From Nitrosospira multiformis ATCC 25196 (GTDB lineage Bacteria > Pseudomonadota > Gammaproteobacteria > Burkholderiales > Nitrosomonadaceae): a stretch of DNA of 32,000 nucleotides. Below the pieces are notes generated by a model that ran no database searches, was not told where the DNA came from, and saw only the letters and a list, made by a program, of their open reading frames with translations. Below are positions 1 through 25,199 of this stretch, piece after piece. The DNA is taken from contig NC_007614.1 in assembly GCF_000196355.1 (NCBI RefSeq), positions 1,050,001 through 1,082,000 of the forward strand, written 5' to 3'. Positions within the stretch are counted from its first letter, which is position 1. Each line of letters begins with the position of its first letter. The position numbers and the translations under genes are program-made.

Positions 1-225
1 GGAAGGAATGATATAACCGTACATGGTTTTCGCTCATCATTTCGAGACTGGGCTTCGGAATGCACAAATTTTCCAAGAGACGTATGTGAGATGGCGCTTG
101 CCCATACGATAAGCAATAAAGCAGAAGCAGCTTATCGTCGAGGAGACTTGTTCGAGAAGCGGAGGGTATTGATGGAAGAGTGGGCGGGATATTGCTACGA
201 TGGCTCAGCAATTATGTCAAGGTAA
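1..225 (+). CDS. Tyrosine recombinase / phage-type integrase, C-terminal fragment (5' part outside window)
   Basis: Frame 1 from nt 1 reads GRNDITVHGFRSSFRDWASECTNFPRDVCEMALAHTISNKAEAAYRRGDLFEKRRVLMEEWAGYCYDGSAIMSR, then TAA at 223-225. HGFRSSFRDW ... LAH ... AYRRGD is the HxxR / catalytic-Tyr C-terminal box typical of P4/CP4-57-type integrases. Confidence 0.85.
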   Translation, partial: GRNDITVHGFRSSFRDWASECTNFPRDVCEMALAHTISNKAEAAYRRGDLFEKRRVLMEEWAGYCYDGSAIMSR

Positions 226-320
226 TAACTATAGGGAATGCTTCTGTTCGAATCATCTGCAAGAAGTACTTGCCAGTTTAGGCTTCTATAAAAAGTCAGA
301 GTCAGTTGTTGAATCTAATG

Positions 321-380
321 GAGGGAACTTAAAATCCCTCGGGCTTAACCGCCCGTGCCGGTTCGATACGGCTGCGGGAC
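321..380 (+). other. Degenerate tRNA-Leu(UAA)-like 3' fragment; candidate att remnant of the integrase-bearing element
   Basis: GAGGGA-ACTTAAAA-TCCCTC (6-bp stem, loop containing CTTAAAA), then GGGC-TTAACC-GCCC (class-II-tRNA-like variable hairpin), then GCCGGTTCGATACGGC (T-arm-like, GGTTCGA), then TGCGGGAC. The order and spacing match the anticodon arm to 3' end of a tRNA-Leu. However, the loop has 8 nt, the T-arm is imperfect, there is no CCA, and no complementary 5' acceptor strand exists in 285-320. Confidence 0.4.
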
Positions 381-727
381 TAATATCCAAGAGCATAGAT
401 GTGTTCTAATCTTTCCGTCTATAATTATTTACTGTCAGGTTGACAACCCAGCCCAAAGCTGAAGTTGTTCTATTAGCATATTGCTAAACATCATACCGCT
501 GGCAGCTGGTCGGCTGTTCCTCGTCGACAACAACATCCCACCCATCTCCTCAAGCAGAGCCCACCTTTCCGTGCAGTGACTGTTTTTGAAAAGATTGCAG
601 CGTGTTCAAGGATCTGTCTTTATCAAAACTGTCTACCACAGCTGTTAGATTCACATATCATGGTGCAGAGGGAAGATAGGGCATCCTGCTTTTATTGACA
701 CCAGCCAAGCTCATTTGCATGAGAGCA

Positions 728-1663
728 TCAATCTCCCGATTTCTCATTCCTGGATGTTAACGAGTAATTTGAGCTGCGGATCGATTCTCCCGATGCGCGT
801 CGATGAACAGTTTGATGCATAACGCGCGTGTTCACACCCGGCACGCTCACCCTGCATTTTATGCCTGCAGGTAGTTTGGAATCATCATTGGCAATTTCCA
901 TTCGTACCCCAAAAGTACCGCTCGCTGTATCCATGACTTTATCTACGATTTTCACTCTGGCTTTATAAGACCCCCCCACAGGCGCCTCCGGAAATACTTC
1001 CAATAGTTGCCCTGGTTTGACCTTTCCATAAGCCTCGAGCGGGAGAAGTGTTTCTACATGTAAAACTGTAATATCCGCTATTTTCAAAATAATTTTCCGA
1101 TTATCACTCCTTGCGTCTGTCAACTCTCCAGGGTGCATCATCCGGTCGACGACAATTCCATTGAATGGACTTCTTACGGTCCGTAGACGTAGCTGTTCAC
1201 TGGCACGCCGGTACTCGAGCTGAGCCACGCGTTTATTATCCAGAGCCTCCTTTAGCTCTGCTTCAGCCAGTCGTTTCTCTGTCTCTGCTTCATCACGATC
1301 CTGTGTAGATACAAACTTCTGTGCAAGTAATTGTTCACGGCGATGATGCTTCAAGGTCGCATATTCGGATCGACTCTGGCTGGCCTGTATAGCACCTTCC
1401 ATAGTTGAACGGTATTTGGCAAGCTCGGTAGTCGCTTTTTCCAAGCCTGAATCCAGCGTTACAAGTATCTGACCAGTATTGACGGCGTCACCGCGATCCA
1501 CCCAGATTTTTTCGATAATTCCGGTCGTGCTCGGTCGGATCTCTACTATCTGGCGCGCCTCGATCAGGCAGTCAAACTCCCCTGCCCACCCAAATGCCGC
1601 CCCCCAAGAGGATACGCAGGCAAACGTAACTTGTGCCCAAAAGCGCCTCACATTAATAGTCAA
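728..1663 (-). CDS. Periplasmic adaptor, HlyD/membrane-fusion-protein family (stand-alone, signal peptide)
   Basis: 311-aa ORF. The N-terminal hydrophobic leader is RRFWAQVTFACVSSWGAAFGWA. A lipoyl-like hairpin (IRPSTTGIIEKIWVDRGDAVNTGQILVTLD ... VRSPFNGIVVDRMMHPGE) flanks a coiled coil (EAETEKRLAEAELKEALDNKRVAQLEYRRA), followed by a beta-barrel-like tail. TTG start at 1663 lies 8 nt after GGAAGGA. It starts 30 nt downstream of the SecA-like stop. Confidence 0.85.
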   Translation of the reverse strand: MTINVRRFWAQVTFACVSSWGAAFGWAGEFDCLIEARQIVEIRPSTTGIIEKIWVDRGDAVNTGQILVTLDSGLEKATTELAKYRSTMEGAIQASQSRSEYATLKHHRREQLLAQKFVSTQDRDEAETEKRLAEAELKEALDNKRVAQLEYRRASEQLRLRTVRSPFNGIVVDRMMHPGELTDARSDNRKIILKIADITVLHVETLLPLEAYGKVKPGQLLEVFPEAPVGGSYKARVKIVDKVMDTASGTFGVRMEIANDDSKLPAGIKCRVSVPGVNTRVMHQTVHRRASGESIRSSNYSLTSRNEKSGD

Positions 1664-1693
1664 CGTTTGATTCCTTCCAATCGAGATATATCA

Positions 1694-3694
1694 TCACTCT
1701 CCACGTCCCGCAAAAGCCAGCATCTTCGCTAGTCGTTGATCTTCCAGCACAGTCTGGCGACGTATTCTCGAGTAATACCGTTCTGATGATCGTTGTGCCG
1801 ATCCCCGCAGCAGTTTTGCTTTCATGCCGGTTATTACATTACTGAAACTTGAATTGCTCATAACCCTACGAGCCATCTCTCCCGAAAATAGAACAAATAG
1901 CTCGTCTTCCAAGGAGACAATGGATTCGTAACTTCCCTTATCCCCCTGGCGTCCAGCACGTCCATAAAGTTGTCGGTCGATGCGGGGCGATTCGTGGAAC
2001 TCAGACAAAATTACGTGCAATCCTCCTCTATCCGATACGCCAGATTCCAATTTAATATCAGTACCGCGCCCCGCCATATTCGTCGCGACTGTGACACGAC
2101 CAACGCGGCCGGCCTGCTCAACGACAGTTGCCTCGTCTTCATCCTGGCGAGCATTAATCACGCTATGTTCGATTCCTTCTGTCTTGAGCAGGCTACTCAA
2201 ATGCTCCGAAGCAGCTACCGAACGCGTTCCAATCAGAACGGGACGACCTTCATCGCGAACACGCCGTATACTTTTCAGTACCGCATCCCAACGGGATGCG
2301 GTATCGAGAAAGATTCTCGTTCCCAAATTCTTTCGCTGTACCGCACGATTAGTTGGAATTCGCAGCACGTCCAGCCCGAATATGGCACTTAACTCGCCCA
2401 CCACCTCGGCTGCGGTGCCAGTCATACCGCCAAGCCGCAGATATCGTCTAAAAAACCGCTGATATGTTATGCGAGAAATGGTTTTACGACGATCGGTAAG
2501 CGCACATCCTTCCTTTACTTCAATCATCTGGTGCAATCCGCTTTCCCAAGTCCGATCCGACATGACTCTTCCGGTATATTCATCTACAATCTGCACCTTC
2601 TCATCCTTTACGATGTAGTGCTTGTCGCGCATGTACAGCAACTGGGCTGCCAGGGCCTGCTCGATCAACTCGAAGCGGGCGCGTGCAACTTGCCAAACGC
2701 CAGGAAGGTTGCCACAGATGTTCGTAATGTGATCACGACCGGCAGGAGTCAACTGGATCAACTTATCAGCAGCAAAAATCCGAAAATGCAGTCCATCTCG
2801 AAGTTGTCGGCAAAAATCCAATGCTCTCCGGTAGTCATCGACTCCTTGCTTGTCAGACACACTGCTGGAAATGATGAGCGGGGTTCGCGCCTCGTCAATG
2901 AGCACGCTGTCTGCTTCATCGACAATCCCAAAAAATAACCCACGTAAGTAAGCTCTGGAATTCTCGTCACCCCTGAACAGGCGAGCTACAGCGCGGCGGG
3001 CATCCGAGACATCGCGATTAGAGTCAATCCGGTCACGCAGATAATCGAATACTAGATCTTTGTTGACGCAATAGGTGACATCACAACCATAGGCATTCCG
3101 TCGTGTTTCCGGATCCTGATCTGGAACCACCATTCCCACGTCAAGGCCAAAAAACTCATACACCGGTCGCATAAATCTGGCATCACGCCGGACAAGATAT
3201 TCATTTACCGTAATTACATGAACTGGTAAACCTGACAGGGCCACCGCTATCGCGGGAAGTACCGCGGTGAGTGATTTACCCTCTCCGGTTTGCATCTCCG
3301 CCAGCTTCCCGGCCAATATTACCCGGCCACCGATCAGCTGCACCGGAAAATGCCGCAATCCCAGTTTACGGCCGCAAACTTCCCTTACCAATGAAAAAAC
3401 TTCAATCGTCAGATCTTCCGTTAACCCTTGGCGGGCAAGCTTCACCCTAAGATCGTCCACGCACGCAGCGAGCTCTGCTTCAGATAAAGCGGAGAGAGCG
3501 TTGCTTCGATGCACAACCTTGTCCGCAAAGCTCCTCAAGCGTTTAAGTCGAAGATGGGATGCCCATAACCGCGCTTGCCCAAGCGATGAGCCTAAAAAGC
3601 GATCCAGAGCATTATCATTCGTATCCAGCCGCTCCGGATAAGGTGCTGGGGCAAGGCTGTTTATTCTCCAGGCAGCAAGCAAGGCTTTAGACAT
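1694..3694 (-). CDS. SecA-like DEAD-motor ATPase, C-terminally truncated (NBD1-PPXD-NBD2 only)
   Basis: SecA signatures are present: AEMQTGEGKSLT (Walker A), VHVITVNEYLVRRD, VDEADSVLIDEARTPLII, TNMAGRGTDIKL and RIDRQLYGRAGRQGDKG. Only ~95 aa follow the last motif, so most of the helical scaffold/wing/C-terminal linker is missing. The protein is ~666 aa versus ~900 aa for housekeeping SecA (from memory). I chose the start at ATG 3694 (MSKALLAAW), which overlaps the upstream stop by 8 nt (ATGTCTAA). The ORF-track start at 3799 would overlap the upstream gene by 113 nt. Confidence 0.85.
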   Translation of the reverse strand: MSKALLAAWRINSLAPAPYPERLDTNDNALDRFLGSSLGQARLWASHLRLKRLRSFADKVVHRSNALSALSEAELAACVDDLRVKLARQGLTEDLTIEVFSLVREVCGRKLGLRHFPVQLIGGRVILAGKLAEMQTGEGKSLTAVLPAIAVALSGLPVHVITVNEYLVRRDARFMRPVYEFFGLDVGMVVPDQDPETRRNAYGCDVTYCVNKDLVFDYLRDRIDSNRDVSDARRAVARLFRGDENSRAYLRGLFFGIVDEADSVLIDEARTPLIISSSVSDKQGVDDYRRALDFCRQLRDGLHFRIFAADKLIQLTPAGRDHITNICGNLPGVWQVARARFELIEQALAAQLLYMRDKHYIVKDEKVQIVDEYTGRVMSDRTWESGLHQMIEVKEGCALTDRRKTISRITYQRFFRRYLRLGGMTGTAAEVVGELSAIFGLDVLRIPTNRAVQRKNLGTRIFLDTASRWDAVLKSIRRVRDEGRPVLIGTRSVAASEHLSSLLKTEGIEHSVINARQDEDEATVVEQAGRVGRVTVATNMAGRGTDIKLESGVSDRGGLHVILSEFHESPRIDRQLYGRAGRQGDKGSYESIVSLEDELFVLFSGEMARRVMSNSSFSNVITGMKAKLLRGSAQRSSERYYSRIRRQTVLEDQRLAKMLAFAGRGE

Positions 3695-5834
3695 TGAAGT
3701 TCGATAACAGGAGTTGCCGCGATGCCCGGTACCAGCGGAATGCCAGGGGTTCTGGAGCGAGATCAAAACGGACATGGACACGCGCTCCCAGTGACACATC
3801 TCCTACCGATGGAGGAAGCAGCAAATCGAACTGGAATACGCGCGCAAGTGTTTTCGTTCCATTCTCATCACGAGGATCAGTGGCGTGAATTCCACCATGC
3901 TCAAGCGCCAATGCCTTGCTGGGAAGCTGGTCGCGCCCGCCGGGCACCTCCCGCAACACCTGTGCCGGATAAGTATCGCTCAGGCGATCGATCAACTTGA
4001 GATGTACGCTTTTGAGGCCACTGCGAACAACATCGATGTCATCCTGGGTAAGCACAACTCGAACCGTTCTTATTGGCCCTTCCAATACATATCCCACGAG
4101 TTCCCCTTGTTGCATAAATTTACCCGGTAAATCGGGTGCGTTTGGAATTACCAGTCGCCCTGATGTCCGAGCTTCTACCATCAACTCCTCGACACGATTT
4201 TCCAGTCTGGCTAGCAGAGTGCGCTCTTTTTCCAGTTCGTCATGGGTAATAGCCGCCTGTAAGCGGTCTTCAAGAAAGCTTGATGAGTATTGAACCACCA
4301 ATTGGTCTACTCGTGACCGCTGGGATAACAATTGCGTGATGAGGTCAGGATCACTGGACTCAATCACCATTTCTCCCTTGTTAACCTGCACTCCCGAATC
4401 CACCAATAACCGCTGCACGAACCCTGCGGTGTTTGCCCGAATCTCCGCATCTTCCGGTATCCAGATCACGCCTTCGGCATGACGATAAAACGGCATAGGT
4501 ACCGCCAAAGAGAACAGGACGATGAAGGCAATTCCCCCCAAAGTGACACCTACTGCACGGCGCCGCTGCCGATGAAGCGCGGGGCTATAAAACACATGAT
4601 GAATTCCCTTCACGATTGGAATTACGAGCATACTGGCAACACTCCACATCGCAAGGATCACCCCGACAAAGAATAACTCGCCTGCAATGAACACGACGAT
4701 TGCAAATGTCACAAACAGCCTATAAGCGAATGACGCCAGCGCGTAAAACACCAGCCATAATCGCTCGCTTCTGGTTTCTGGGAGCGGCTGTACATCCCGT
4801 TTTCGGAATGCATAACGCTGGACAAGGTATCCCACGTACTGGTTGGCGCGACTGGCGAGATTTGGAATCTCGATCAGGTCGCTAAGAATGTAGTAACCGT
4901 CAAAACGTAATAGCGGATTGCCGTTAAAGACAATGGTGGATAGCCCGGCAACGAAAATCACGTTAAAGGCCAAAGCGTGGATTATTCCATGTTCAACTAC
5001 CAGCCATACATACATGGCCAGAGCAGCCAGGAACAACTCGACCATCATTCCGGCCGCTCCAACCAGAGCACGACGCCGCTTACTGCGAAATGCCGTTGCG
5101 GCGGTTGCGTCCACGTAAGGAACAGGCATCAGCACGAGGAGCATGATTCCCATTTCATGCACTTCGCCGCCACCGGCCTTGGTCGTATAGGCATGGCCCA
5201 GTTCATGCAGCAGTTTCACCAGAGGAAAAACCAGCCAAAGGGCGAGCAGATTGCTGGATGACAAAACCCGGTCACTGAGGTTCTGCGTCAAATCCTCCCA
5301 GTGGGAGGCTGTCATGATTAAAGCGGGTGTCACCACTGCCAGCCAGAGAAGGCCGCCACGCCAGGTGAAGAGCCACTTAAGATAGGGATAAGTGAGGTTG
5401 ATGAAACGATCCGGATCCCACAGGGGAAAACGGATCGACATCGGATTCAGGAAATTTTTTATCCATTTCGACTGCCGTTGCTTGACTCTGCGTTGGGATA
5501 GCTCCAGCAAATCCGGCGACACATCACTTTGCAGTATGTCTGCCATATGCAACTGGGTAAGGAGTTGAATCATGTCGTCCTGAGACGGCGCCGCTGCCTC
5601 AAGCTCCTTTGCAACCAGCACCCAGATTTCCTCGACGGTATGTTTCCCGTCCATCAGGCTGATAGCGAGATATGCACCCGGCGCGAAACGATGCATGCGG
5701 CCTGTGGCCGGATCCTGTAATACATACCAGGCCCGCCCCCGAAAACGATGGCGGTGCACCTTGGCATGCGTCCGCAGGACCGGTTTCAGATCAGCGACAC
5801 GATACCAGGAGCTACTCAGGGAAGATTCAGCCAC
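3687..5834 (-). CDS. Three-part fusion: PqqD/RRE-like N-domain + M50 site-2 metalloprotease membrane core + HlyD/MFP-like C-terminal periplasmic domain
   Basis: 715-aa ORF. LLHELGHAYT (HExxH) and NGNPLLRFDGYY (NxxPxxxxDG) are the two S2P/M50 catalytic motifs, embedded in several hydrophobic helices. The N-terminal ~95 aa (WYRVADLKP...MDGKHTVEEIWVLVAKEL...MIQLLTQLHMADIL) resemble PqqD-type peptide-binding domains. The C-terminal ~270 aa has the MFP pattern (IRANTAGFVQRLLVDSGVQVNKGEMV ... coiled coil ... ARTSGRLVIPN). GTG start at 5834 follows GGAAG. Confidence 0.85.
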   Translation of the reverse strand: MAESSLSSSWYRVADLKPVLRTHAKVHRHRFRGRAWYVLQDPATGRMHRFAPGAYLAISLMDGKHTVEEIWVLVAKELEAAAPSQDDMIQLLTQLHMADILQSDVSPDLLELSQRRVKQRQSKWIKNFLNPMSIRFPLWDPDRFINLTYPYLKWLFTWRGGLLWLAVVTPALIMTASHWEDLTQNLSDRVLSSSNLLALWLVFPLVKLLHELGHAYTTKAGGGEVHEMGIMLLVLMPVPYVDATAATAFRSKRRRALVGAAGMMVELFLAALAMYVWLVVEHGIIHALAFNVIFVAGLSTIVFNGNPLLRFDGYYILSDLIEIPNLASRANQYVGYLVQRYAFRKRDVQPLPETRSERLWLVFYALASFAYRLFVTFAIVVFIAGELFFVGVILAMWSVASMLVIPIVKGIHHVFYSPALHRQRRRAVGVTLGGIAFIVLFSLAVPMPFYRHAEGVIWIPEDAEIRANTAGFVQRLLVDSGVQVNKGEMVIESSDPDLITQLLSQRSRVDQLVVQYSSSFLEDRLQAAITHDELEKERTLLARLENRVEELMVEARTSGRLVIPNAPDLPGKFMQQGELVGYVLEGPIRTVRVVLTQDDIDVVRSGLKSVHLKLIDRLSDTYPAQVLREVPGGRDQLPSKALALEHGGIHATDPRDENGTKTLARVFQFDLLLPPSVGDVSLGARVHVRFDLAPEPLAFRWYRASRQLLLSNFNV

Positions 5835-5858
5835 TACCTGCTTCCTATGGATTCAGGT

Positions 5859-7703
5859 TCACGGCAGCCAGTTCCAGCTCAGCATACGCAGCCAGTCGAT
5901 AAATCGATGGGTCCATATCCAGATCAACGTTCGTTCACCGACACTAATTTTCCCTACGCCCTCCATCCCGGGGCGAAGTCGTGGAGGGGCATGCTGAAGC
6001 TTCGCCTCGACACGAAAATAATTGTGCCCCTCTTCGGCTTCGGCGATTGAGATATTGATCACCTCCAGAGGCATGGACTCGGCTGATAGGCCGGACAGAA
6101 CAATAGTGCCTTTTTGTCCTGCCGCCACATCACGAATATCCCGCTCATCGACCTTGAGTATGACCCTGTAGGCATCGAGCGGTGCAACTTCAAACAAAAG
6201 TTTCCCTCGCTCCACCGGGCTTCCAAACATCTGGCTCAGATCACCCGTCACCACGATCCCGTCAAAAGGGGCACGAATGGCAGTGCGCGCCAGCTTTTCT
6301 TCCACGAGGGTCAGCTGGGCCTCCGCTTGCGCGACTTGCGCCACCAGAATACGAACTTGCGGTCGATCTCGTTTGGCAAGCGCATCGCGGTACTTACGAT
6401 CATTCTGCTCAAATTCGCTCAGCCATTTCTGGCGCTCTACCAGCAAATCGCGATCATCCAGCTTGGCAAGCAATTGTCCGTGTTTCACGGTTTGACCGGC
6501 CCGTATATAAGCTTGAGCGATATAGCCTTCAAAGGGCGCAACGACCGCCCGCTGGACCTCACCTTCCAGCACTGCTTTGGCGGGGACCCGGTATTCAGCT
6601 TCAAATACCGAAATGAAAATCAGAAATGCCAGCAGGAAAGCAGCAGCGTAGCGGAAACTCGGGCGACGTGGATCCACCAGAGCTTGAGCAGCTGCGCGCA
6701 GCTGCTGCGCGGAGCGACCCGCAATCCAATGAGTCGCATCCTCTTTCATATCCAAGATGGGGCCGATTAACGACGCCGTAGCCTGGCATAGCTCCACGTC
6801 GGCGAGCATAAAGCGTGTTTCTGCTCGCTCCAATGTAATCACGCCCACGCCTCGCCCGGCGCTCCACAGTACTATGGACAGAACCGAACCTGTCTTGGCT
6901 ATATCCTTGTTTGCTACCGCAATGCCTTTGGTCAGTCCCTCGATCGGGGGATATGCGATGGTTTTACGCTGATCGAGCGCTTCGTCCATGGCATTCTCGA
7001 TTTCGGTCACAAACTGGCTTTTTTTTTCAAACCAGGCAGAGTTGGAAAGTGCAATCAGGTGAACCTGATTTTTTCGCTCCATGCCAATCGCGATTCGCGT
7101 GCAGGCAAGACGTTTGCATAGTTCGTTTGCAATCGCGAGGGAAGCATCTTCGAGCTTTGGGTGTTCTCCTGCCAGCGCGGCTACATCCAGCGCTATCGCC
7201 GCGCGTTCCAGTTGCCGAGAATCGTCAGTACTTTTCTGGCGCCAGAAATGGGATTCAAACCATCCCATTCCCCAACTTAATTGCTGATTTATCTTTTGCA
7301 GCGCGGCAGCGGGACGCTGCGTGACCTCAAGCGCTACCGCTCCGTGCAGGCGTCCATTCAGCTCGATGGGCCAGGTAATCAGAATCGTTTGATCGGTTTT
7401 TCCGGGCTGCGTGTTGCCTGCCCGGCAAATAAGGCACTTTTGCACGGCGCTGCCAAGATGAGTGACATCCCGTGTTCCATGAGGCCAAATACCTGCTGGA
7501 ACATAAGTATTAGCGGATTCCTCTATTACAAGAAGGCCCGTTTCGACCCCGTCCAGCATGCCGCACAGACGCCCAAGCCATGCTTGTGAAGGGCCTTGGC
7601 CAGTGCGGTATCCGCTGGAAACGCCGTATAGAGTTACTTGATCTTTTGATTCAGCAGAAATCCCTGGGGTCGAAGTCTCTGCATTCGACGCGGGCTGTGT
7701 CAC
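5859..7703 (-). CDS. GAF-like (x2) cytoplasmic domains + single TM + HlyD/MFP periplasmic adaptor
   Basis: 614-aa ORF. Residues ~40-330 form two GAF-like alpha/beta units (e.g. ...WPIELNGRLHGAVALEV... and ...SIVLWSAGRGVGVITLER...). The TM segment is FRYAAAFLLAFLIFISVF. The classical MFP part follows (VVAPFEGYIAQAYIRAGQTVKHGQLLAKLD ... coiled coil ... IRAPFDGIVVTGD ...). GTG start at 7703 lies 7 nt after AGGGG and 35 nt after the giant ORF stop. The GAF assignment is pattern-based only. Confidence 0.8.
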   Translation of the reverse strand: MTQPASNAETSTPGISAESKDQVTLYGVSSGYRTGQGPSQAWLGRLCGMLDGVETGLLVIEESANTYVPAGIWPHGTRDVTHLGSAVQKCLICRAGNTQPGKTDQTILITWPIELNGRLHGAVALEVTQRPAAALQKINQQLSWGMGWFESHFWRQKSTDDSRQLERAAIALDVAALAGEHPKLEDASLAIANELCKRLACTRIAIGMERKNQVHLIALSNSAWFEKKSQFVTEIENAMDEALDQRKTIAYPPIEGLTKGIAVANKDIAKTGSVLSIVLWSAGRGVGVITLERAETRFMLADVELCQATASLIGPILDMKEDATHWIAGRSAQQLRAAAQALVDPRRPSFRYAAAFLLAFLIFISVFEAEYRVPAKAVLEGEVQRAVVAPFEGYIAQAYIRAGQTVKHGQLLAKLDDRDLLVERQKWLSEFEQNDRKYRDALAKRDRPQVRILVAQVAQAEAQLTLVEEKLARTAIRAPFDGIVVTGDLSQMFGSPVERGKLLFEVAPLDAYRVILKVDERDIRDVAAGQKGTIVLSGLSAESMPLEVINISIAEAEEGHNYFRVEAKLQHAPPRLRPGMEGVGKISVGERTLIWIWTHRFIDWLRMLSWNWLP

Positions 7704-7738
7704 TTAACTACCCCTGTCTGGTCTGTCACTCATTTGTT

Positions 7739-10700
7739 TCATACCAAAGCCTCATACACCACGCCATTGGATGAAGCGACACGCAGCGAGCCATCCGGGG
7801 CAAAGGCCAAGCCGGAGATCTCACTGTCGTTGACACCCTGGGAGGCAAGATCGATGCGGCGCACTTCCGTGCCGGTGCGGGTGAACTCCACCAGCGTGGC
7901 GGCTGCAGAATAGGTTCCCAGCCACAGGTTGCCCGTGACCGGATCGATCGTCAGGCCGGCATAGCTGTATGTGGTGAAAGGCACCGCGAAACTCGCGATC
8001 TCGGCACCGGTCGCGGCATTGATCTCCACGATGCGGTTGCCCGAATTGCGCGCATCCGTCACGAACAGGTGGCCGCTGGCCGCATCGAACACACCGGCGG
8101 CAAGATCGTAGTTCTGCCCCAGCGTGAGGCTCGCAATCACCGCCCCATTTGCCGCATTGACGGCAACCACCCGGTCTGGGCTGGCGTAGCCATTGAACAG
8201 CAGCAGGCTGCCTTGAGGCACGTTGGTCCCATTGAGATTGATCGCCTCGCCCAGCACCTGCAGCCCCGCCAGGCTGAAGGCATAAGGCGCGCCAAAGGCA
8301 TCGGTGAGCGTGATGGTCTGCAGGATCGCGCCGCTGGCTTCATCGATGCGCAGGATATGGCCGGGATTGCTGTTGTCGCTCACCCACAACGCTCCCGTGA
8401 CAGGATCCACCGCCACATCGCCCAGAAGACCTATCGCCCCCGTGTCGCTGCCCGGGCGCAGCAGGTTGAGATCCAGCGCCGCGGAGGTGCCGCCCGCGGT
8501 AGTGACGGTGAGCCCCCCCAGGCCGTGGCGCGGCAGAGTACTGTTATCCAGATAGGCGCGCCCATTCTGGTCGGTGTTGTAGTACACATCCACTCCACCA
8601 TTGACCCGGCTGTCGGCTACCGTTGCGCCGGCAAAGCCATAGCTGCTCGCGCCTTCCACGAAACCCGAGCCGTACAGGTACAGTGCGCCACTCTGCACAT
8701 CAAAGCCGGTAAGCTTGGGCACGATCTGCAGCAGGGGCTGGCTGGCCGAGCCGAATACCTGCAAACTGGCTACCCCATTGGCGTATTCCGGAATGACGAG
8801 CGTGGCGCTGCTGCCATCGGCCGCCGCGCTGGTCGGACTCAGGCGGGTCATCCGCGCATCGCCGTTGACATCGGTCCAGCGCAGCAGCACATCGGTGGCG
8901 GTGGATAGCCCCGTGCCCTGCAGGGTGACCGCCTGCCCCGGATTGGCCGAGGCCTCGTCCGCATCCGCGGGTGTGCCGCTCAAGGCCGTGGCGGCTATGC
9001 CGCTCAAGTTGACGCTGTAGCTCGCGCTGGCGCCGCCCGCGGTCCTGATGCTGATGGGGCCGAAGGTGCCGCTCGACAGCGGCACCGTCACTGTGACCTG
9101 GCCGTTGGCGGTGTACACCCCATTGACATATCCGTAATAAACGTCCGGCCCGGTGTTCACCCCCGCATCCAGCACCACGTCGCTCCCGAACCGGTATTCG
9201 CTGTTGTTGCCTTCCACAAACCCCAGTCCGCTGATCACTACCGTCGCACTGCTGCCATCACTCGCCACTCCCTGTACCTGAACGTCCACAATCACAGGAA
9301 GTATCTGCAAGGCCAGTGCGCTGGCGTTGCGGTCGCCCACCACACGCACCGTGCCGGTAACCGCATTCAATGGCACCGCCACCTGGATTTCCGTGCCCCC
9401 CGCATTGACGGTAGCGGGCCGCACAATCAACTGGCTGCGGTTGCCGTTATTGTCCACCGTCTCGAACACCACATCCGTGCTGGCATCCAGCCCGCTGCCT
9501 TGCAGCTTGATGGTCTGGCCGGGCACGGCTGAGGCCTGGGTACTGTTGGCAGGCGTGCCGCTGTCGGCGCTGGCCGTAATGCCGGTGATGCTCAAGCCGA
9601 AAGCAGCGCTGGTGCCACCAATGGTGGCGACCTGAATGGGGCCAGTGGGGACGTTCGTAGGTACAATCAGATTGAGGGTCGTATTCTCTCCATAGCCCAA
9701 GGCTGTCTTGCCATCGACATAACCTTGATAAACGTCCGGTCCGGTATTCCGTGATGAATCGTTCAGTCGCTGACCACCGAACAATACGGCAATGGCGCCT
9801 TCGGCAAAACCGCTGCCGCTGAGCGTCAGGAAGCCACCGTTGTAAATACTGTTGAGGCTGGCACTGATATCGCCTAGTGTGGGCACGATCTGCAGCAACA
9901 CGCCGCTGCTGTCTCGGGCAAGACGCAGCGTGCCGGTGGTCGCGTCAACGGGCACGACCACCGTCATGCTGTTGCCATCCGCAGCCACGCTCGCCGGCAC
10001 GATAGCTCGCTCAGCCAGCCGACCGGAACTGTCGATGGTGGTAAACACCACCCTGTCGCTGCCTTGTAGGCCGCTGCCTTGCAAGGTGATGGTCTGACCG
10101 GTGTTGGCGGAAGCAATGCCACTGCTGGCAGGCGTGCCGCTGCCAGCAATGGCGCTGATGCCCGAGAGATTCCTGCCTGCCAGGCTGGCCGTTCCACCGC
10201 GGGTGCTGACGGTGATGATGCCTGTTGTCACCCCGGTGGGTACGGTCAGGGTCAGCAACTGCTGATCTGCCGAACTGCTGCCAAGACCCTCGAACACAGT
10301 GCGTACATTGAAGCTGCCGGTGGCGCGGCCATCGATCTGCACGGTCAGTTCGGAACCGACCAGCCCAGTGCCTTCCAGCACCACGGTGCTGCCTGGTGCC
10401 AAGCTGCCTCCAAGCGACTTGAGGGTGGGCACGATCTGCAGGTCGAAGCCCGCGTTGCTGCCCAGCACCGTGACCTTGCCCGTGCGCGCCAGCGCAGGTA
10501 CTTCGATGCTGAGACTGGTGCCACCGCTGCCCGGCGTGCCGGTGCGGGTAATGGTGCCCAGCGCCCCGCTGTCGTCGATCCCGGTAAACTGCACCAGGGT
10601 CTGGGCGGTGAAAGCCTGTCCGGTAAGCGTGATGGTCTGCCCGGTGTTGGCCGAGGCCTTGGTGGCATCGGCCACCGTACCGCTATTGGCTGACGCGGTA

Positions 10701-13700
10701 AGACCGGTGAAGAGAACGGTCGGCTGCGTCCCGAAGGCCGAGCCTGCGATCTCGGCATAGCCGCCTTCGGTGGTCACGCGGATGGCGCCATCGAGCGTAC
10801 GTGGGGCTATCACGCCCAGGGTGTCGTTGCGCGTCCCGCTGACATCCACGCCATTGACCGCAGCGCCAGTAAAGACCCTGCCGCCGATGGTCACGGTGCT
10901 GGTTCCTTCCATGAAGCCCGAGCCGATGAGGTTGAAGGCATTGTCGCTGCCCGGCCGCCCGCTCAGACCACTCAGAGTCGGCACGATCTGCAGGCGTATG
11001 CCGCTGCTGGCGCCATAAGTTTGTACCGATTGTGCATCCGGATAGTAATTGGCGAAGGTTTCCCGGAAGATCTGCTGCCCGTCGGCCGTGATCTGGATGA
11101 GATCCGGGCCAGCGGTGGGATGGCTCCCCTCCCAGCTGTCCAGCGCATACAGATCGAAGCTCAGGGTATAGGTCTGCCCGGCAGTCAGCCCGCTCAGGTT
11201 CAGCACCTGGCTCGCATTGCCAAAGCGCCCGGAGAATTCGCTGAAGGTGCCCAAGGCATTGCGATTGGTTATCTGGTTGCTCCAGTTGGCCTTGGCCCCG
11301 CCTTCAAAGGTGTCCGCAAATACAGTAGTTGAGCCTTGCTTGACGACAACGTTGTCGATGCCCCAGCTCTCGTCGTTGATATCCTGCAGCCCGCCGTCGG
11401 CAAAGCGCAGCACGGCCGTGCTGCTATTGGCCGTAAAGGTGGTCGTGACATTGCGGTAGATGGCATCGTTGTAGCTGGTGAAACCGAGGTTGCTGGCGCC
11501 TGTATTGACGACCTTGACCTCTCCGGTCGCAGCCAGGTCGGGCACCAGCACCTGCAAACGCGTGCCCGCATCATTTATCGCCAGAGGCTTGATGGCGACT
11601 ATGCTGGTGTTGCCGTTGCTGTCGCGGGTGTTGAACAATACCTGGGTGCCCGCCCCGAAGTTGGTGCCGCGCAGTTCGATGATCTGGCCGATATTGGCCG
11701 CGGCCACGCCGCTCTGTGCAGCCACGCCATCGGTGGCGGAAGCCAGGACCTGCGTGAGTGTGGCGCGCTGAACCGCGTCATCATGCGCAGGATCGATCCG
11801 GTACACCACGCCATTGGATGAAGCGACACGCAGCGAGCCATCCGGGGCAAAGGCCAAGCCGGAGATCTCACTGTCGTTGACACCCTGGGAGGCAAGATCG
11901 ATGCGGCGCACTTCCGTGCCGGTGCGGGTGAACTCCACCAGCGTGGCGGCTGCAGAATAGGTTCCCAGCCACAGGTTGCCCGTGACCGGATCGATCGTCA
12001 GGCCGGCATAGCTGTATGTGGTGAAAGGCACCGCGAAACTCGCGATCTCGGCACCGGTCGCGGCATTGATCTCCACGATGCGGTTGCCCGAATTGCGCGC
12101 ATCCGTCACGAACAGGTGGCCGCTGGCCGCATCGAACACACCGGCGGCAAGATCGTAGTTCTGCCCCAGCGTGAGGCTCGCAATCACCGCCCCATTTGCC
12201 GCATTGACGGCAACCACCCGGTCTGGGCTGGCGTAGCCATTGAACAGCAGCAGGCTGCCTTGAGGCACGTTGGTCCCATTGAGATTGATCGCCTCGCCCA
12301 GCACCTGCAGCCCCGCCAGGCTGAAGGCATAAGGCGCGCCAAAGGCATCGGTGAGCGTGATGGTCTGCAGGATCGCGCCGCTGGCTTCATCGATGCGCAG
12401 GATATGGCCGGGATTGCTGTTGTCGCTCACCCACAACGCTCCCGTGACAGGATCCACCGCCACATCGCCCAGAAGACCTATCGCCCCCGTGTCGCTGCCC
12501 GAGCGCAGCAGGTTGAGATCCAGCGCCGCGGAGGTGCCGCCCGCGGTAGTGACGGTGAGCCCCCCCAGGCCGTGGCGCGGCAGAGTACTGTTATCCAGAT
12601 AGGCGCGCCCATTCTGGTCGGTGTTGTAGTACACATCCACTCCACCATTGACCCGGCTGTCGGCTACCGTTGCGCCGGCAAAGCCATAGCTGCTCGCGCC
12701 TTCCACGAAACCCGAGCCGTACAGGTACAGTGCGCCACTCTGCACATCAAAGCCGGTAAGCTTGGGCACGATCTGCAGCAGGGGCTGGCTGGCCGAGCCG
12801 AATACCTGCAAACTGGCTACCCCATTGGCGTATTCCGGAATGACGAGCGTGGCGCTGCTGCCATCGGCCGCCGCGCTGGTCGGACTCAGGCGGGTCATCC
12901 GCGCATCGCCGTTGACATCGGTCCAGCGCAGCAGCACATCGGTGGCGGTGGATAGCCCCGTGCCCTGCAGGGTGACCGCCTGCCCCGGATTGGCCGAGGC
13001 CTCGTCCGCATCCGCGGGTGTGCCGCTCAAGGCCGTGGCGGCTATGCCGCTCAAGTTGACGCTGTAGCTCGCGCTGGCGCCGCCCGCGGTCCTGATGCTG
13101 ATGGGGCCGAAGGTGCCGCTCGACAGCGGCACCGTCACTGTGACCTGGCCGTTGGCGGTGTACACCCCATTGACATATCCGTAATAAACGTCCGGCCCGG
13201 TGTTCACCCCCGCATCCAGCACCACGTCGCTCCCGAACCGGTATTCGCTGTTGTTGCCTTCCACAAACCCCAGTCCGCTGATCACTACCGTCGCACTGCT
13301 GCCATCACTCGCCACTCCCTGTACCTGAACGTCCACAATCACAGGAAGTATCTGCAGCAGGAATGTCCCATCCGCAAAAGTCGTTTTGGTACTGCCGACC
13401 TGTGAAAACACCTGGATCTCGCCGGTGACCGCATCCAGCGGCACCCTGAAATAAGCCAGGCCCTGCGTAGCATCAAAACGACTGACCACCACGTCACGCG
13501 TGGTTTTGTTTCCACTCGCATCGATCACGTTGAATGTGGTGCGGGCCGTGGCAGGATCGAAGGGAACGGGTAGGCCGATTTCCTGGCCTGGATTGGCAGA
13601 GGGCGCCTGGGTGATTTCAGGCATGCCGCTGCCCGCGCGGATATCGCTGGCAGGACGGATGGTGAAATTAAGGACAATGGGCGCGGTAAGCGCATTGCCC

Positions 13701-16700
13701 GCCTTGTCCGCTATCACCGACGGATCGATGCGCAACTGGTAGGTTCCGGGCAGCAGGTAGCCATTCGGCAGGATGGAGAGCGATTGGCCGAAGGAGCGGG
13801 TATCCAGCCGCACATCGATTGCCCTGTCATCCGCCGTGCCCGCGACGCCATCCGAACCGGTGTTTATCAGCTCAATGCCCGACAGGTTCAGCTTGGCAAG
13901 ATCCAGCGGCTCGTCGAACGACACGTCGATCGAACGGACGAAGAAGACGCGTGCGCCCTCATCCAGGCTCATCTTCGTCACCTGGGGTGCGAAGGTGTCA
14001 GGTACCACGTCCAGCACCACCGGATCAGACAGTGTGGCGTTGCCGCCTGTATCCGTGGCGCGGACCTGGATGGTCAGCTTGTTGCCGCTTTGTGCGATCG
14101 TTGGCGCCTGTGCGAACAGTTCGAACGGGAAGGCGGCGTCGTTCGATACCACCTGCCCGTTGACCAGCAGCTCGACATTGCGCACCTGCACATCATCGGT
14201 CACAGTGGGAATGACACTGACCGTGCGGCCTTCCAGCACCTGGATGCCGGCCTTTTCCGGATCGACATCGATCCCATCCACCTCGATGGATACCGTGGGG
14301 GCGACACCCTTGGTATCAAACCCTATGTAGTTGACGATCTGCAGTCCGGCTGCGCCATCGGCGACGAAGGCGAGACCGTTGGCGAGCACCACATCCCTGG
14401 GAGCAGCCGGCAGGTTGATGCGGGTGATGAAGCTGCCGGTATTGGTGGGATCGTTGCTGCTGCTGACATCCAGTGCATAAATCTGCTCGCCGCGTGGACC
14501 GCGCAGATTGCCGGCGGTGACGAGCAGCCCGGAACCGGTGGCAGCCAGCGACTGACCGGCTATATTGGCTGCATCGATGCTGCTAATCAATTTCAAGTCG
14601 GCAGGGTCGGAGACATCGACCGTGCTGTACCCCTGGGTGAAATCGGTGGCAGTGCCGACATAGGCCACGCCGCCACCCACGAAGAGCTTGCCGCCGCCGG
14701 CGTCCAGCACTAGCGAATCGCGCAGGGTGAGCAAATCGCCATCTATACTGATTGCACGCAGCGTACGGTTGGTATCCATGGTGTAAAGTGTCTTGCCTTC
14801 GAGCGCCAGGCCGGTCAGTGTCGTCCCACTAGAATTCCCCAGATCCAGAGTCTGGCGTATATCCCCCGTATTCAAGTCCACGGCTGCGACGCTATCCCCA
14901 ACTGCGATATAAGCGAGACCATCGCGCACTTTGACCTGCGTGACGAAATCGCCAAAGGTTATCGTTTGTCGCAGGACGGGCAAAACAGGGTTCGAGACAT
15001 CGATGATATGCAGTCCACCCTCGTTAGCCGCCACAGCGGCCAGTCCACGGACTGCATCTACGGCGACATCTTTGTTTGAGCCGGAGAGCTTTAGCTCGGC
15101 AAGTAATGTAGGTTTGGTGAACCGTGATACGTCGACTACGGCCAGACCAGAACTACCGGTGGCGACATAAGCAGTTAGTTTCGACGCATCGGAAGTAGAC
15201 CCTGCAACTGACACCGCTTCGGCTGTGCCCTGGAGAGTTGTCGCAGACACCACACCTGTGGGAATGCCAAGCCCGCCAAGTGGATTGAGGCCCTGCAGTA
15301 ATTCAGAGAAGTCAAGAATGCCGTCTCCGTCAGTATCTCGATCTAAAAGATTTGTTCCAATTATTTTTTCAGCAACATCAGGTAAACTGTCTGAGTCCAA
15401 ATCAATAAGTCTGCTAGCTGACAAATAGAGCGGATTTGGAATTCTCGTGCTTGTACCGGAGGCGGAACTACTGAATTCGGCCCAACCGTAGCGGCCAGAA
15501 GCAGCGTCATAGATTTCAACTCTAAGCTTAGAATCGGCAGGAAGCATCGTATCTATGGTTCCATCTGCAGCTGTTTGTCCTCGAAGTTCGAACCCCGTTC
15601 TTAAATCCGTTATCAAGAAAAAAGCGTTGCCTGGGTTTCCTACAATGCTAGCTATTCCATCTGCTAGTGTACTGCCTACATTAAGGACCTTTGATTCAAG
15701 ATCGCCTATGCTGATCGCAGAGGAGTCGATTAATTCCCGTTGGTGAGCCAATAAGGCAGTAAAAGTGTTGTTGGTGGCTGCAAGCAGGTCATCCGATGTA
15801 GTGGCGACAGCGGTCTTACTTGAATTCGCTATGAAAGCTACTCCCGATGTGAGAATACTTCCCGATTCTGTCGATTGCGCTTCAATATCACCGATTCCCA
15901 GCGCGACTTCGATAGCATCAAGACCTATGCATACCGCTTCGAAGCCCGCTTTTGTTATTAAATTCTTAATGCCCCCTCTAACCAAGTCTAAAAGGCTTTC
16001 GGCGTTGCTAACCGTAAACTCCGCGACATCTATCGCACTGCAACCGACCTCGACCCAAAAAGTCGGACAATCATGCTCCTTTAGGGCTTTAACAAGCGAG
16101 TCGCAGGCTTCGCTAAGTTCCTCAAGGATAGGTTTAGCCGCTTCAAGCGTTTTTTCCAACAGTCCAACAGGATTTTTTGACGTCGCTTGTTCGACCACGG
16201 CCTCATATATAGCTTTCCACCGATCCTTGTTCGTTTTGATTAATTCAAATCCTAATCTAAGGGCACTAGGATCCCCACCACTATCAACCTGCTTTTTAAA
16301 TTCGGCAAATTGTTCAATCATTGTGGTGGCCATTTGAGCAGACTCACTCATGATGGTATAGAACTCACGCAGACCCGCAATGTTCTTGACCAGATTGCGT
16401 ATGAGACTATCAACAGCGGCAGGGACGCGATCTAAGAGCGCATCCTTTGCTGCACCTAACTCGTCACAGTCTTCCTCGGGTAATGGATCTCTTGGGGGAT
16501 TCGGACCATTAGTCGGCGAGCCTGGCGGTGTCATCCCATGCCACCCCGGTGCCATAACCCCTGACCCTTCATCTGACACCACTGTTTTTCCATCGGCAGA
16601 TACCGTCCCGGTGCCGCTGATCACCAGCAATCCGGTCGTATGATCGAAGCTCAGAATGTTGAGCTTAGTTCCCGGAGCAGCATTGAACACGTTCGGGAAG

Positions 16701-19700
16701 GTAATCTGTACGGGCTGGGTGAACGTGTTGACGCCCGGCGCCTGTATGGTGATATCGAAGCTGTGCTGCAAGACGCCTGGCGGCAGCATGTCGCGCACGA
16801 GTTCCGGCGGTACGGTGTTGATGCCGATCTTGACGTCATCCAATACCTTGCCGTCGAACCCCACGGCGCTGCCGGGCGGGACGGTCAAGGTGAGCTGGCT
16901 GCGCTGCTCGCCCGTCAGGTCCGGCGCGGATTTGTCGTCGACAGTGACAACGGTGGTTTCCGTCTGGCTGATCTGCTGGAGAGCGGAGGTCTGCACGCGT
17001 GGCAGGTAGACTTCGCGCCGGTCCGCATTGGCAAGCCGTTCCTCGTTGGAGCCCATGCTGCCCATTACCGTGTTGGTGATGCCAGGCAGCAGTTGTGTCG
17101 ACATGACCATCTCAGGGAAGAAGATCCCCTCCGGCGCATTGGTGGCTGTGCGCCCATCCACGACGACCTTGACTTCCCCTACCGGTACCTCGGTCAGCTC
17201 GAAGTTGCCATTGGCGTCGGTGTAGACCACCTTGTCTTCCAGACCGATGATGTAAACCTTGGCGTGCGCGATGGGGTTGAGGAAAACGTCGTCCGGGGTA
17301 TGGATGACGCCATCCGGGCCACGGCGGATGTCATCGAACGTCATAGGCAGCAGGTCGGGGCCGGGATCCACAACTTTGCCAACCAGCTTTGTGCCGGCGA
17401 CGACAGTGCTGCTGATGCTGGTAAAACTCCAGGTGAATTCGCCGCCCGCCGCGCCATTTCCATCCGCGTCCAGGAAAGCCCCGTCAGCCTGGGCGCGAAT
17501 GGCGGAGCCATTCAGGTGCAGCGTGATGTTGGAGCCGCCCGGCATGGGCTTGTCGAAGAACACCCAGGCGAAGCTGCCATCGAGTGCAGGAACGATGGTG
17601 GTATCGAGTTTAGTGCCATCCGGCCCGGTGGCGTAGAAGGTATTAGCGGTCAACGTATTGGGGTTGACCTCGCGCGAGAAAAATACCTGCGGACGATAGG
17701 TGACGCCCACGTCCCCGGTGCCTCCGGTGGGCGTCACCCGCGTGATGGTGAAGGGTGCCAGCGCCTCGACCTTGACCTCTCGTATGACATTCGCCGTGTT
17801 GCCGGCCGCATCCCTGGCGTTGAGCGCGAGCTTATGGTCGCCGATCCCCAGGTTACCCAGGATCAATGCCTGATCGAAACTTCCGGTGGTTGTATCGAAA
17901 ATCAGACTGTGCTTCTGCCCGCCATCCACGGTGTAGAACAATTCCACGAGCCAGGTGCCGGTGGGATCAGCCGTTCCCGTTACGCGGCTGGCAGCGGAAA
18001 GGGTTGCACCATCAGCGAGGCTTGCAAGGTCGAGCGCGGGTGCTTGGGTATCGAGGGTGAAGCTGCGGTTGAATCCGGCGGCGAGGTTGCCCGCGGCATC
18101 GCGCGCCAGGATGGTGACTGTGTGGCTGCCATCCGCCGTGCCGTCAAGTGCAAAAGCAGTAGTGATGCTGAATTTGCCATCCGCATCGAGCGCGAGATCC
18201 TTCAGATCACCCCCGTCGATCCGATACTGCGCGCTCACAACACCCGAGAGATTGTCCAGAATCTGGCCGCTGAGAGCGAGGTTGGTATTGAGCGCGACAG
18301 GTGTATCCTGGGCGATGACCATTGGTGCCTGGGTATCCGCATCGAGCGCGAAGCGGGCCAGTACTGCCTCGGCCACCTGGTGCCCCAGAGTCTGCCCGGC
18401 CTGGTTGGTAAATTCGTAATGAATGCCCCCGTAGACGCGACTGCGCCCCGCTTCGCCGGCGGCCGCATCGAAGTTGTCGAAGCTGCGGGTGACACCGGGA
18501 AGCGTGTAGGAAGTGGTGGAAAAGGAGGTATCGTTGCCGAAGACTTGATTGAGAATGCCGGCGGCGGCGGCACTGAATGTGGAGTGTCCCGAGACATATT
18601 CCGGATGGGCCGGGGTGATGAGCAGCGGTTTCCAGCCCTCTTCCTTGATGGTGGCTGCGTTGTTGTCCAGATCGGCGTTGTTGATCGCCGTTTCCGGACG
18701 CCACAAGCCGTAGGTATATTTTGCGTCCCAGCAGGCGATGGCTGCGTCAGCCAGAGCTATATTGAGCATGGCAAACAGCCGGGCATTGGCACTGAGGCTG
18801 TTGCCCTGCGCCCGCGCAATTTCCTCCGCAATCTGGTTCCAGTGGCCGGGCGGCGTGTAGCTACCCATACCATCTGCCCAGAACTGGGCCTGCTCCGTCT
18901 GGTCAGCGGTTCGCGTTGTGCTGTTGGCGCTGCCCACGCTGCGAACTTCTTCCACGGACTGTGCATACTCAGATGAGTCAAGCGCCGGTGGCGCGGGGGG
19001 ACGGAACTGATTCGCGGCGCTTAAAGCAAATGGGGTAACGGTTGACCATTGCGGTTGATCTGGAACATCGAACATCGGACCAGTTGGCCGCCATTTGCCC
19101 AGCTCGGTACTGCCCGGATAATCCACAAAGGTCTGTGCACCATCGTTGCCGCGCAACGCGAGAACGGTATCGGCCACTGCTGTGCCCAGTGCAATGCCGG
19201 CATCCTTGGCCGGTCCTTCCGCGACTTTAGCCAGGGAAGCTGCCAGCGCGGCGTCGAAGGTTCCTTTCTGGCCAGGATATTCCACAGTAAGAACCCGATG
19301 AGCTGCTGCCGCCACTGCGGCATCGGCGGAAACAGGGCCCGTGGCGCTGAGCTTGACCAGGTATGCCTGAGTGCCATCGATCGCGGCCAGGCTGTCGTAG
19401 ATTGCCAGACTCACCATGGCGAGCAGACGGGTCGCGATTGGGGGGTCAGTCACATCGAGGCGTATGGCTTCGAGCGCCTTACTGTTCCAGAACAGCGCCT
19501 GATCCTGCGTTATCTCTCCGGTGCGCTGGAAGGTGAGGCTGCGCTCCGAGGTATTTCCCGCTGCATCAATGGCGCGCAGGGTCAGGACATTGGCGCCATC
19601 CTGCAATGAAATGCCGGCCAACTGGAAGTTGCCCAGGTTGTTTGCAAGCGCTGAAATGGATGTGCCCACCACGGATATGCTGACTCCGGGTTCGGAGGTT

Positions 19701-23389: not shown

Positions 23390-23449
23390 CCCTGCGGGCG
23401 CCGATTGGCTCGCTGTTTTGCGATATCCGCGAGTAATTTCCTGTGATTT

Positions 23450-25143: not shown

Positions 25144-25199
25144 GATCCAATGAAGGACCAGATCGATCTCGACGATCAGGAGTCTTGATCAGGAGTCTT
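25144..25199. repeat. GATC cluster (5 sites in 47 nt) including tandem 13-mer GATCAGGAGTCTT x2
   Basis: GATC occurs at 25144, 25161, 25165, 25174 and 25187. GATCAGGAGTCTT occurs at 25174-25186 and 25187-25199. Confidence 0.8.

Follow-up and report, generated by a model that had tools for sequence, protein, structure and literature searches.

By which route might a protein of several thousand residues be exported that carries neither a Sec- or Tat-type signal peptide nor RTX repeats, and do the genes beside it encode that route? This question arises from a 32,000-nt stretch of the genome of Nitrosospira multiformis ATCC 25196 (NC_007614.1, positions 1,050,001 to 1,082,000; in the following called the window), in which the gene of a 5216-aa giant with an N-terminal LEPR-XLL motif is followed by a module of four genes encoding a truncated SecA-like ATPase and three adaptors of the HlyD/membrane fusion protein (MFP) type, one of them fused to an M50 protease. 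An earlier reading made from the letters of this DNA (the original prediction) had taken the module for a candidate export and processing system of the giant, and this interpretation as a whole is partly supported. Our analysis shows that the module is a conserved unit with essentially invariant catalytic residues in its protease and its ATPase, and the neighbourhood evidence linking it to LEPR-XLL giants is strong. The module is probably a type-I-secretion-like, envelope-spanning export and processing apparatus dedicated to LEPR-XLL leader proteins, here the adjacent giant.

Linkage of the module to giant LEPR-XLL proteins

The putative cargo is encoded by a 15,651-nt open reading frame (ORF) at 7739..23389 on the minus strand. 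The four module genes follow on the same strand and encode, in this order, an MFP with a GAF-like region (GAF-MFP, 614 aa, 5859..7703), a fusion of a PqqD/RRE-like domain, a site-2-protease-like M50 domain and an MFP (M50-MFP, 715 aa, 3687..5834), the truncated SecA-like ATPase (tSecA, 666 aa, 1694..3694) and a stand-alone MFP (311 aa, 728..1663). They correspond to Nmul_A0926 to A0923. The ORF coordinates bear out the four minus-strand genes and their predicted spacings of 35, 24, -8 and 30 nt, counted from the giant gene to the stand-alone MFP gene. The M50-MFP and tSecA genes share an 8-nt ATGTCTAA overlap at 3694..3687 (letters AAC TTC AAT GTC TAA / ATG TCT AAA). The longest possible tSecA ORF begins at 3799, and the start is probably at 3694 because about 120 homologues are mostly 655–685 aa long and the database entry of N. 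multiformis, to which the window's protein is 100% identical, has 666 aa. Of the claim that these genes form a single expression unit, the tight spacing stands; promoter-like and terminator-like matches from simple scans were not above chance and lay inside genes, so the operon was called from spacing alone.

The LEPR-XLL motif was identified with NF012209, a 24-residue N-terminal motif model, which matches aa 65–86 of the giant (23132..23197, minus strand; LVIEALEPRLLLSADL) with 34.1 bits at a cut-off of 17. The motif, a putative signal for recognition and sorting, belongs to a basic N-terminal leader, which is followed by a CARDB domain, eight Big_13 Ig-like repeats, a PAP2/vanadium-chloroperoxidase-like domain, LVIVD repeats and more Ig-like domains. 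The giant contains no occurrence of GGxGxD and no hydrophobic N-terminal segment of the Sec/Tat type was found in it, exactly as had been predicted.

For a census of related loci, one genome per species was scanned with an alignment of three M50-MFP orthologues, and 331 stretches encoded a relative. The best 80 of these 331, with flanks of up to 10 kb, three non-redundant look-up loci and the window make up set 1 (83 loci). Set 2 comprises 80 loci and brings the total to 163; it was obtained independently, by searching metagenome contigs with aligned distant representatives, and its M50-MFPs are only 35–40% identical to the reference member. A metagenome scan with the single distant representative P0504 had found nothing, and the alignment-based repeat succeeded. 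The order GAF-MFP, M50-MFP, tSecA, MFP is kept in nearly all set-1 loci and recurs in set 2, and a GAF-MFP orthologue is present in 82 of the 83 set-1 loci. A gene of the TolC family of outer-membrane channels (OEP) adjoins the module in about a dozen related loci, 10 of them in set 1.

Twenty-nine set-1 loci had at least 6 kb of sequence on both sides, and 23 of them were flagged for a giant neighbour, defined as a giant same-strand ORF ending <3 kb upstream or a large LEPR ORF starting just downstream. The flagged upstream giants usually run off the flank, with >2000 aa visible. Two large closed upstream ORFs (in L075 and L082; L numbers denote loci of the census) turned out to encode HrpA-like helicases and not cargo, which corrects the count to 21/29. 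The Arg-rich long ORFs of L155 are probably spurious high-GC frames and were likewise rejected as cargo. The neighbourhood census that had been proposed with the original prediction links the module to LEPR-XLL giants and not to small peptide precursors.

The motif itself recurs at these neighbours. E-x-LEPR-x-LL-S-A-D or a close variant is present in 20/20 loci in which the N-terminus of a real large neighbour was visible; the N-termini of upstream giants in ~30 loci lay beyond the fetched flanks and are outside this count. Ten of the 20 belong to set 1 (L011, L014, L016, L029, L037, L043, L063, L078, L079 and the window), and their N-termini read h-x-h-E-x-LEPR-[ILV]-LL-[SD]-A after a basic stretch. 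The others are the ten real large neighbours of set 2, all of which carry the motif or a near variant of it (L092, L097, L109, L111, L125, L153, L161, L167, L168, L171); the near variants are LEARQLF, LSARQLF, LEDQILY, MEPRLLF and LEQRVLL. NF012209 scored 16 of the 19 non-window N-termini from both sets. With a strict pattern, 10 occurrences were observed against 1.1 expected in 1.9 million residues of six-frame ORFs, and all 10 were located at those N-termini.

Additional features recur at or near the module. A DUF3467 gene (~100 aa) lies directly upstream of the GAF-MFP gene in 31 set-1 loci (e.g., L005:5680-5982) and corresponds to the ‘cluster 5’ hypothetical of Kamneva and colleagues; at the Nitrosospira locus there is no such gene, and the giant ORF stops just 35 nt short of GAF-MFP. 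The idea that DUF3467 is a chaperone like SecB found no support at the sequence level: an hhalign comparison with a hand-entered E. coli SecB sequence yielded a probability of 0.5%, and a profile search of PDB sequences returned nothing significant. A SapC family gene (PF07277, E 9e-74) is located between the giant gene and the module in about 10 set-1 and 3 set-2 loci (e.g., L037:9535-10413 and L043:7132-7989). In a subclade (L053, L059, L061, L065, L071, L072, L085, L086), a conserved gene pair just downstream of MFP encodes a P-loop kinase-like protein (~230 aa) and a protein that has no Pfam match (~280 aa); this P-loop pair was counted in 9 set-1 loci. In the divergent loci L092, L097, L109, L111, L161, L167, L168 and L171, a second conserved block begins 40–80 residues after the LEPR-type motif, within the N-terminal ~130 aa of the downstream giants. 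It reads ELVFVDxxVxxYQxLxxD ... VVLLDxxxDGIxQIS, and the window giant has CARDB in its place. We take the ELVFVDxxVxxYQxLxxD block to resemble the DUF4347 N-terminal domain of giant adhesins.

The giant gene also shows internal repetition. A direct repeat of ~1.56 kb occupies 7755-9309 and 11802-13356, with copy starts 4047 nt apart and a single mismatch, and in the protein an extended, IPT/NHL-like stretch of the C-terminal part is present twice with hardly any change. The repeat could stem from an internal duplication in the very recent past or reflect a collapse or expansion of the assembly. An older repeat in the Big_13 region (19965-20264 and 20595-20894) spans 300 nt with 76% identity and a 630-nt period. 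The G+C content reaches 60–65% across much of the giant gene (8001-15000), compared with 46–55% in the module and flanks (1-8000, 23001-32000), which may reflect an amino-acid composition bias (Gly/Ala/Thr/Val-rich repeats) or a foreign origin. In Accumulibacter phosphatis, a relative of the window giant (CARDB, Big_13, VCPO-like) is broken into consecutive ORFs (L087:10001-16460), the series beginning with a 101-aa LEPR-XLL fragment, and the module lies elsewhere in that genome. This split giant looks like a frameshifted or decaying copy, or like the result of sequencing errors in a repetitive gene.

Domains and catalytic residues of the module proteins

Annotation with Pfam and NCBIfam confirmed the predicted domain reading of the module proteins, with a weak GAF match, and NCBIfam (release 20) holds no dedicated model for any of the four. 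The M50-MFP combines a PqqD match above the gathering score (PF05402, aa 37–101; 26.3 bits, gathering score 23.4), also present in precomputed annotations of most orthologues, with about seven transmembrane (TM) helices and a C-terminal adaptor from aa ~445 to 715. The protease part carries the zinc-binding/catalytic motif HELGH (aa 210–214; 5193..5207, minus strand) and NGNPLLRFDG (aa 304–313); its match to Peptidase_M50 (PF02163) is weak (17.5 bits vs. a gathering score of 27.2). Without exception, 82/82 orthologues keep both H residues and the E of HExxH, as well as N, P and D of NxxPxxxxDG. The intact catalytic motifs and the PqqD/RRE-like N-domain of the original description are borne out, and the M50 domain is site-2-protease-like. 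Among NCBIfam models, the best match is the RRE-M50 leader peptidase of daptides (daptide_HExxH, NF041824; E 8e-42, 143.7 bits, cut-off 300), and the YydH/LiaK model NF058609 matches with E 4e-10 (39.7 bits, cut-off 225); the NCBI label of the protein is ‘PqqD family peptide modification chaperone’. The family is large, with at least 4399 clusters at 50% identity and E ≤ 1e-30, and nearly all listed members are 710–720 aa long.

An AlphaFold2 model of the full M50-MFP (68 sequences, mean pLDDT 83) predicts a small alpha/beta domain, about seven TM helices and a C-terminal adaptor with a two-helix hairpin of ~25 residues per helix. The HExxH helix, a beta-hairpin and the NPxxxxDG helix are placed in the model as in site-2 proteases. 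Foldseek matched the C-terminal third to MexA (E 7.5e-12), MacA and AcrA, showing that the fused adaptor as modelled resembles MexA/MacA. For a separate model of aa 1–445 (pLDDT 81), the top PDB match was the M. jannaschii site-2 protease 3B4R, a weak one (E 6e-3, TM-score 0.45). Because the number of TM helices in the model is odd, the PqqD domain would be cytoplasmic and the adaptor periplasmic.

The only Pfam domains of tSecA are SecA_DEAD, SecA_PP_bind and P-loop_SecA, comprising the two nucleotide-binding domains (NBD1, NBD2) and the preprotein-binding domain (PPXD), followed by a short C-terminal tail. The protein scores 594.8 bits against the SecA equivalog NF009538, below its cut-off of 814, and misses every NCBIfam SecA/SecA2 cut-off; its generic NCBI name is ‘preprotein translocase subunit SecA’. 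Its best solved match, C. difficile SecA2 (6sxh, E 1e-133), is covered over residues 18–594 of 786. Since this match stops at ~594, tSecA ends at the start of the helical scaffold and lacks most of that scaffold, the helical wing, the two-helix finger and the C-terminal linker. Domain matches and alignment thus agree with the SecA-type motor without the C-terminal third that had been foreseen. Walker A GxGKT/S and the DEAD-like DExD are invariant in 73/73 orthologues, and the arginine-finger motif GRxGRQG is kept in at least 72 of the 73.

MFP domains were found in all three adaptors, as predicted. HlyD_3 and HlyD_D23 match in two of the module's proteins, including GAF-MFP, which also exceeds the RND_mfp cut-off; the stand-alone MFP matches RND_mfp with 124.8 bits (cut-off 94.9). 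All three domains remain below the cut-off of the type_I_hlyD subfamily (64.5 vs. 208.65). The alpha-hairpin is longest in the stand-alone MFP. The adaptor identity of this protein is thus confirmed; its N-terminus is weakly hydrophobic, and the signal peptide ascribed to it was judged by eye only. GAF-MFP consists of ~345 cytoplasmic residues, one TM helix (aa 349–367) and, in the periplasm, a membrane-fusion domain whose alpha-hairpin is short. It had been described as having two GAF-like domains. The second survives as a weak match below the cut-off (aa 184–314; 20.5 bits, gathering score 22.4), with weak GAF, GAF_2 and GAF_3 matches in orthologues; the first is supported only weakly, being GAF-like in 4–6 of 16 orthologues, with an hhalign probability of 21%.

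Earlier reports and genomic context

The claim that the system is undescribed did not stand. Kamneva, Poudel and Ward (PLoS One 2015; PMC4452313) reported secondary SecA_DEAD proteins from which the wing-scaffold domain is missing through loss; their genes belong to a conserved locus together with GAF-HlyD, Peptidase_M50-HlyD and HlyD/biotin-lipoyl genes and sometimes OEP, SapC and a small hypothetical protein. Their S2 Table includes genes of this genome (Nmul_A0923, A0925, A0926) and R. baltica RB142-146, together with SapC proteins and the small hypothetical encoded immediately before the GAF gene. In their proposal, the ATPase of an ABC (ATP-binding cassette) transporter is replaced by SecA_DEAD, and the M50 protein may give the membrane-embedded part. 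Apart from the re-analysis of one microarray data set, their study is in silico; the cargo is unnamed, and none of the words giant, LEPR and Nitrosospira can be found in the main text. No later experimental or computational study of the module was found in literature searches, which included papers citing Kamneva and colleagues.

The motif has a separate history. In PMC8567305, Studholme (2004) is cited for the consensus RRLxxExLExRxLLA on cell-surface proteins of R. baltica, proposed in 2004 as a novel export signal. Of the 10 longest proteins of Tuwongella immobilis, 8 bear the motif. R. baltica, in which the motif was defined, possesses the module (S2 Table of PMC4452313). A 2026 preprint on Chlorochromatium describes an N-terminal LEPRxLL on Cag_663 (36,806 aa) and Cag_665 (20,647 aa), both flanked by SapC and TolC genes, in a co-expression cluster that includes a ‘recently acquired’ secA, Cag_1676, which may be of the truncated type. 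The SapC family gene flanking these giants in Chlorobium chlorochromatii is Cag_662. Within the full-text literature that could be searched, no paper connecting the LEPR-XLL motif with the module was found; this connection and the identification of a PqqD/RRE domain on the protease appear to be new.

Elsewhere in the window, a gene for a 208-aa PEP-CTERM (exosortase-sorted) protein lies directly upstream of the giant gene (23450-24076, minus strand), so that a second, unrelated surface-protein sorting signal adjoins the LEPR-XLL one. Farther upstream, a Toprim/DUF3987 primase-like gene (25595-28051, minus strand) and a group II intron reverse transcriptase/maturase gene (30363-31619, minus strand) form a mobile-element-like flank. 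At the other end, a 44-aa ORF (91-225, plus strand) without a Pfam match resembles by eye the C-terminal end of a tyrosine recombinase. Mobile-element-like genes at both flanks are consistent with the horizontal transfer proposed for the module. No tRNA genes were found in the window. Among the ORFs scanned, there were no ABC, RND (resistance-nodulation-division) or OEP genes either, in agreement with the original prediction.

Proposed export route, alternatives and known systems

How could such components act together? The chances are about even that the module is a distinct TolC-coupled tripartite pathway in which a SecA-derived motor drives export, the LEPR-XLL leader is read by the RRE and the leader is removed by the adaptor-fused intramembrane M50 protease. 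The cytoplasmic RRE domain of M50-MFP would bind the LEPR-XLL strand of the unfolded cargo, by analogy with RREs that bind the leaders of RiPPs (ribosomally synthesized and post-translationally modified peptides). The truncated SecA would be a natural NBD1-PPXD-NBD2 motor whose ATP-driven threading replaces the ABC ATPase. The passage through the inner membrane may be formed or surrounded by the polytopic M50 domain together with the adaptors' single TM helices. Across the periplasm, the three MFP domains may provide a duct leading to a TolC-family channel, whose gene adjoins the module in some genomes and presumably lies elsewhere in that of Nitrosospira multiformis. The M50 site would remove the leader, as suggested by the analogy with RRE-fused M50 RiPP leader peptidases. 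The GAF region might gate or regulate the machine, and the DUF3467 and SapC proteins, where present, could be accessory factors.

Several observations weigh against this proposal. No component of the module is an obvious protein-conducting channel, and a gene for the outer-membrane channel is absent from the 32-kb window. Canonical SecA inserts its two-helix finger into the SecY channel. The tSecA has no such finger, so that no way of coupling force to translocation is apparent. Six of the 29 well-flanked loci, mostly from Accumulibacter, have no giant neighbour, and at other loci RTX repeats occur close to the C-terminus of some of the partner giants, which would fit a conventional C-terminal type I signal. 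In the reverse test, a leader-profile search returned mostly contig-end fragments, and six fragments on longer contigs, picked without regard to the module, were inspected. One LEPR-XLL fragment, which speaks for the link, lies directly after genes for DUF3467, GAF-MFP, a 715-aa protein, tSecA, MFP and OEP; another is the start of a gene of >8000 aa, the other end of which was out of reach; and four have no module within 10 kb. The power of this test is low: with a 15–40 kb gene in between, the module at its 3′ side usually falls outside a 10-kb flank. The adjacency of LEPR-XLL giants and module is frequent, not obligatory. Finally, the GAF gene was the sole gene of the M. extorquens AM1 operon with expression in exponential phase (PMC4452313).

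The missing inner-membrane channel would no longer be a problem if tSecA acted like SecA2 and sent LEPR-XLL proteins to SecYEG, with the M50 protein as leader peptidase and the adaptors and TolC serving only the step from the periplasm to the outside. The closest solved relative by sequence is indeed the C. difficile SecA2, the tree of PMC4452313 places the secondary SecA_DEAD clade beside actinobacterial SecA2, and SecA2-only systems work through the canonical SecYEG. However, canonical SecA and SecA2 retain scaffold, wing and two-helix-finger regions that are almost entirely missing from tSecA, the cargo has no hydrophobic signal-peptide core, and the genes recurring around the module in the 83 set-1 loci included no SecY paralogue. 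We therefore regard such an accessory Sec route as unlikely.

The RTX calcium-binding repeats near the C-terminus of some neighbouring giants in other loci, and a Vibrio LEPR-XLL giant with a C-terminal RTX/serralysin region, point in another direction. The giants could be exported C-terminus first by an ABC type I system encoded elsewhere, and the module could anchor, quality-control or release them via the LEPR-XLL region, in analogy to LapD/LapG acting on LapA-type adhesins and with the GAF domains as sensor. The sensor-like GAF region and the protease of the module would suit this role. SapC, which was first described beside the Campylobacter S-layer type I system, recurs near the module. 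Yet the window giant lacks GGxGxD, and an HlyB-type ABC gene, that is, one with fused transmembrane and nucleotide-binding domains, was found in 0/163 loci, which contained just five ATPase subunits of the importer type, all of them small. A release switch would also hardly need three TolC-type adaptors and an ATPase that has a preprotein-binding domain, and we consider this explanation distinctly improbable.

That the module instead matures and exports a small leader peptide of the YydH or daptide kind, with the giants as incidental neighbours, is suggested by the RiPP leader peptidases among the best NCBIfam matches of M50-MFP and by its NCBI name, but these scores are far under their cut-offs, gene-cluster analysis of the 83 set-1 loci found no RiPP-modifying enzyme family recurring beside the module, and the recurrence of giant LEPR-XLL neighbours far above chance makes this possibility very remote.

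If export of LEPR-XLL giants by the module is the correct reading, two loose ends would be joined: the suspected export-signal motif of 2004, carried by many of the largest bacterial proteins, to which no machinery has been assigned, and the widespread second-SecA locus of 2015, to which neither cargo nor function has been assigned. The outcome would be a genetically testable hypothesis on the route by which adhesin-like giants that have no Sec, Tat or RTX signal arrive at the surface in nitrifiers, polyphosphate accumulators (Accumulibacter), Bordetella/Achromobacter, sulfate reducers and planctomycetes. A SecA motor would then act outside the Sec translocon and RRE leader recognition outside peptide natural products, and it would be the first time that leaders of megadalton proteins are recognized in the manner of RiPPs. 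The leader and the module might be used for exporting very large recombinant proteins, and LEPR-XLL could serve as an annotation flag for secreted giants.

Among known systems, the locus of PMC4452313 has the identical gene set and order, and the proposal that SecA_DEAD replaces the ABC ATPase is the same; giant neighbours, the LEPR-XLL motif and the PqqD/RRE domain are not in that paper and are added here. Type I and tripartite pumps (HlyBD-TolC, LapBCE, MacAB-TolC, AcrAB-TolC) are alike in their MFP alpha-hairpin adaptors and in having an OEP, which is nearby in some genomes of our census, and type I cargo resembles the putative cargo here, which is giant, repeat-rich and free of a Sec signal peptide. 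The module differs from them in the absence of an ABC, RND or MFS (major facilitator superfamily) inner-membrane transporter and in its three different adaptors, two of which are fused to other domains. Its conserved cargo motif is N-terminal, in contrast to a C-terminal signal, and the window cargo is devoid of RTX repeats.

With SecA and SecA2, tSecA shares NBD1, PPXD, NBD2 and an intact Walker A/B and arginine finger; it differs in having no wing, two-helix finger or C-terminal linker and in its partners, which are MFPs and an M50 protein instead of SecY2/Asp. The RiPP RRE-M50 peptidases (NF041824, NF058609) resemble M50-MFP in the N-terminal PqqD-like domain and the polytopic HExxH ... NxxPxxxxDG metalloprotease, but M50-MFP has a complete periplasmic MFP fused to it and neighbours of several thousand residues in place of short precursors. 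The planctomycete motif (RRLxxExLExRxLLA, NF012209) is carried by the window giant and the neighbouring giants of other loci after a basic N-terminal stretch. No machinery is assigned to this motif in the searchable literature; here, it is tied by neighbourhood to the four-gene module.

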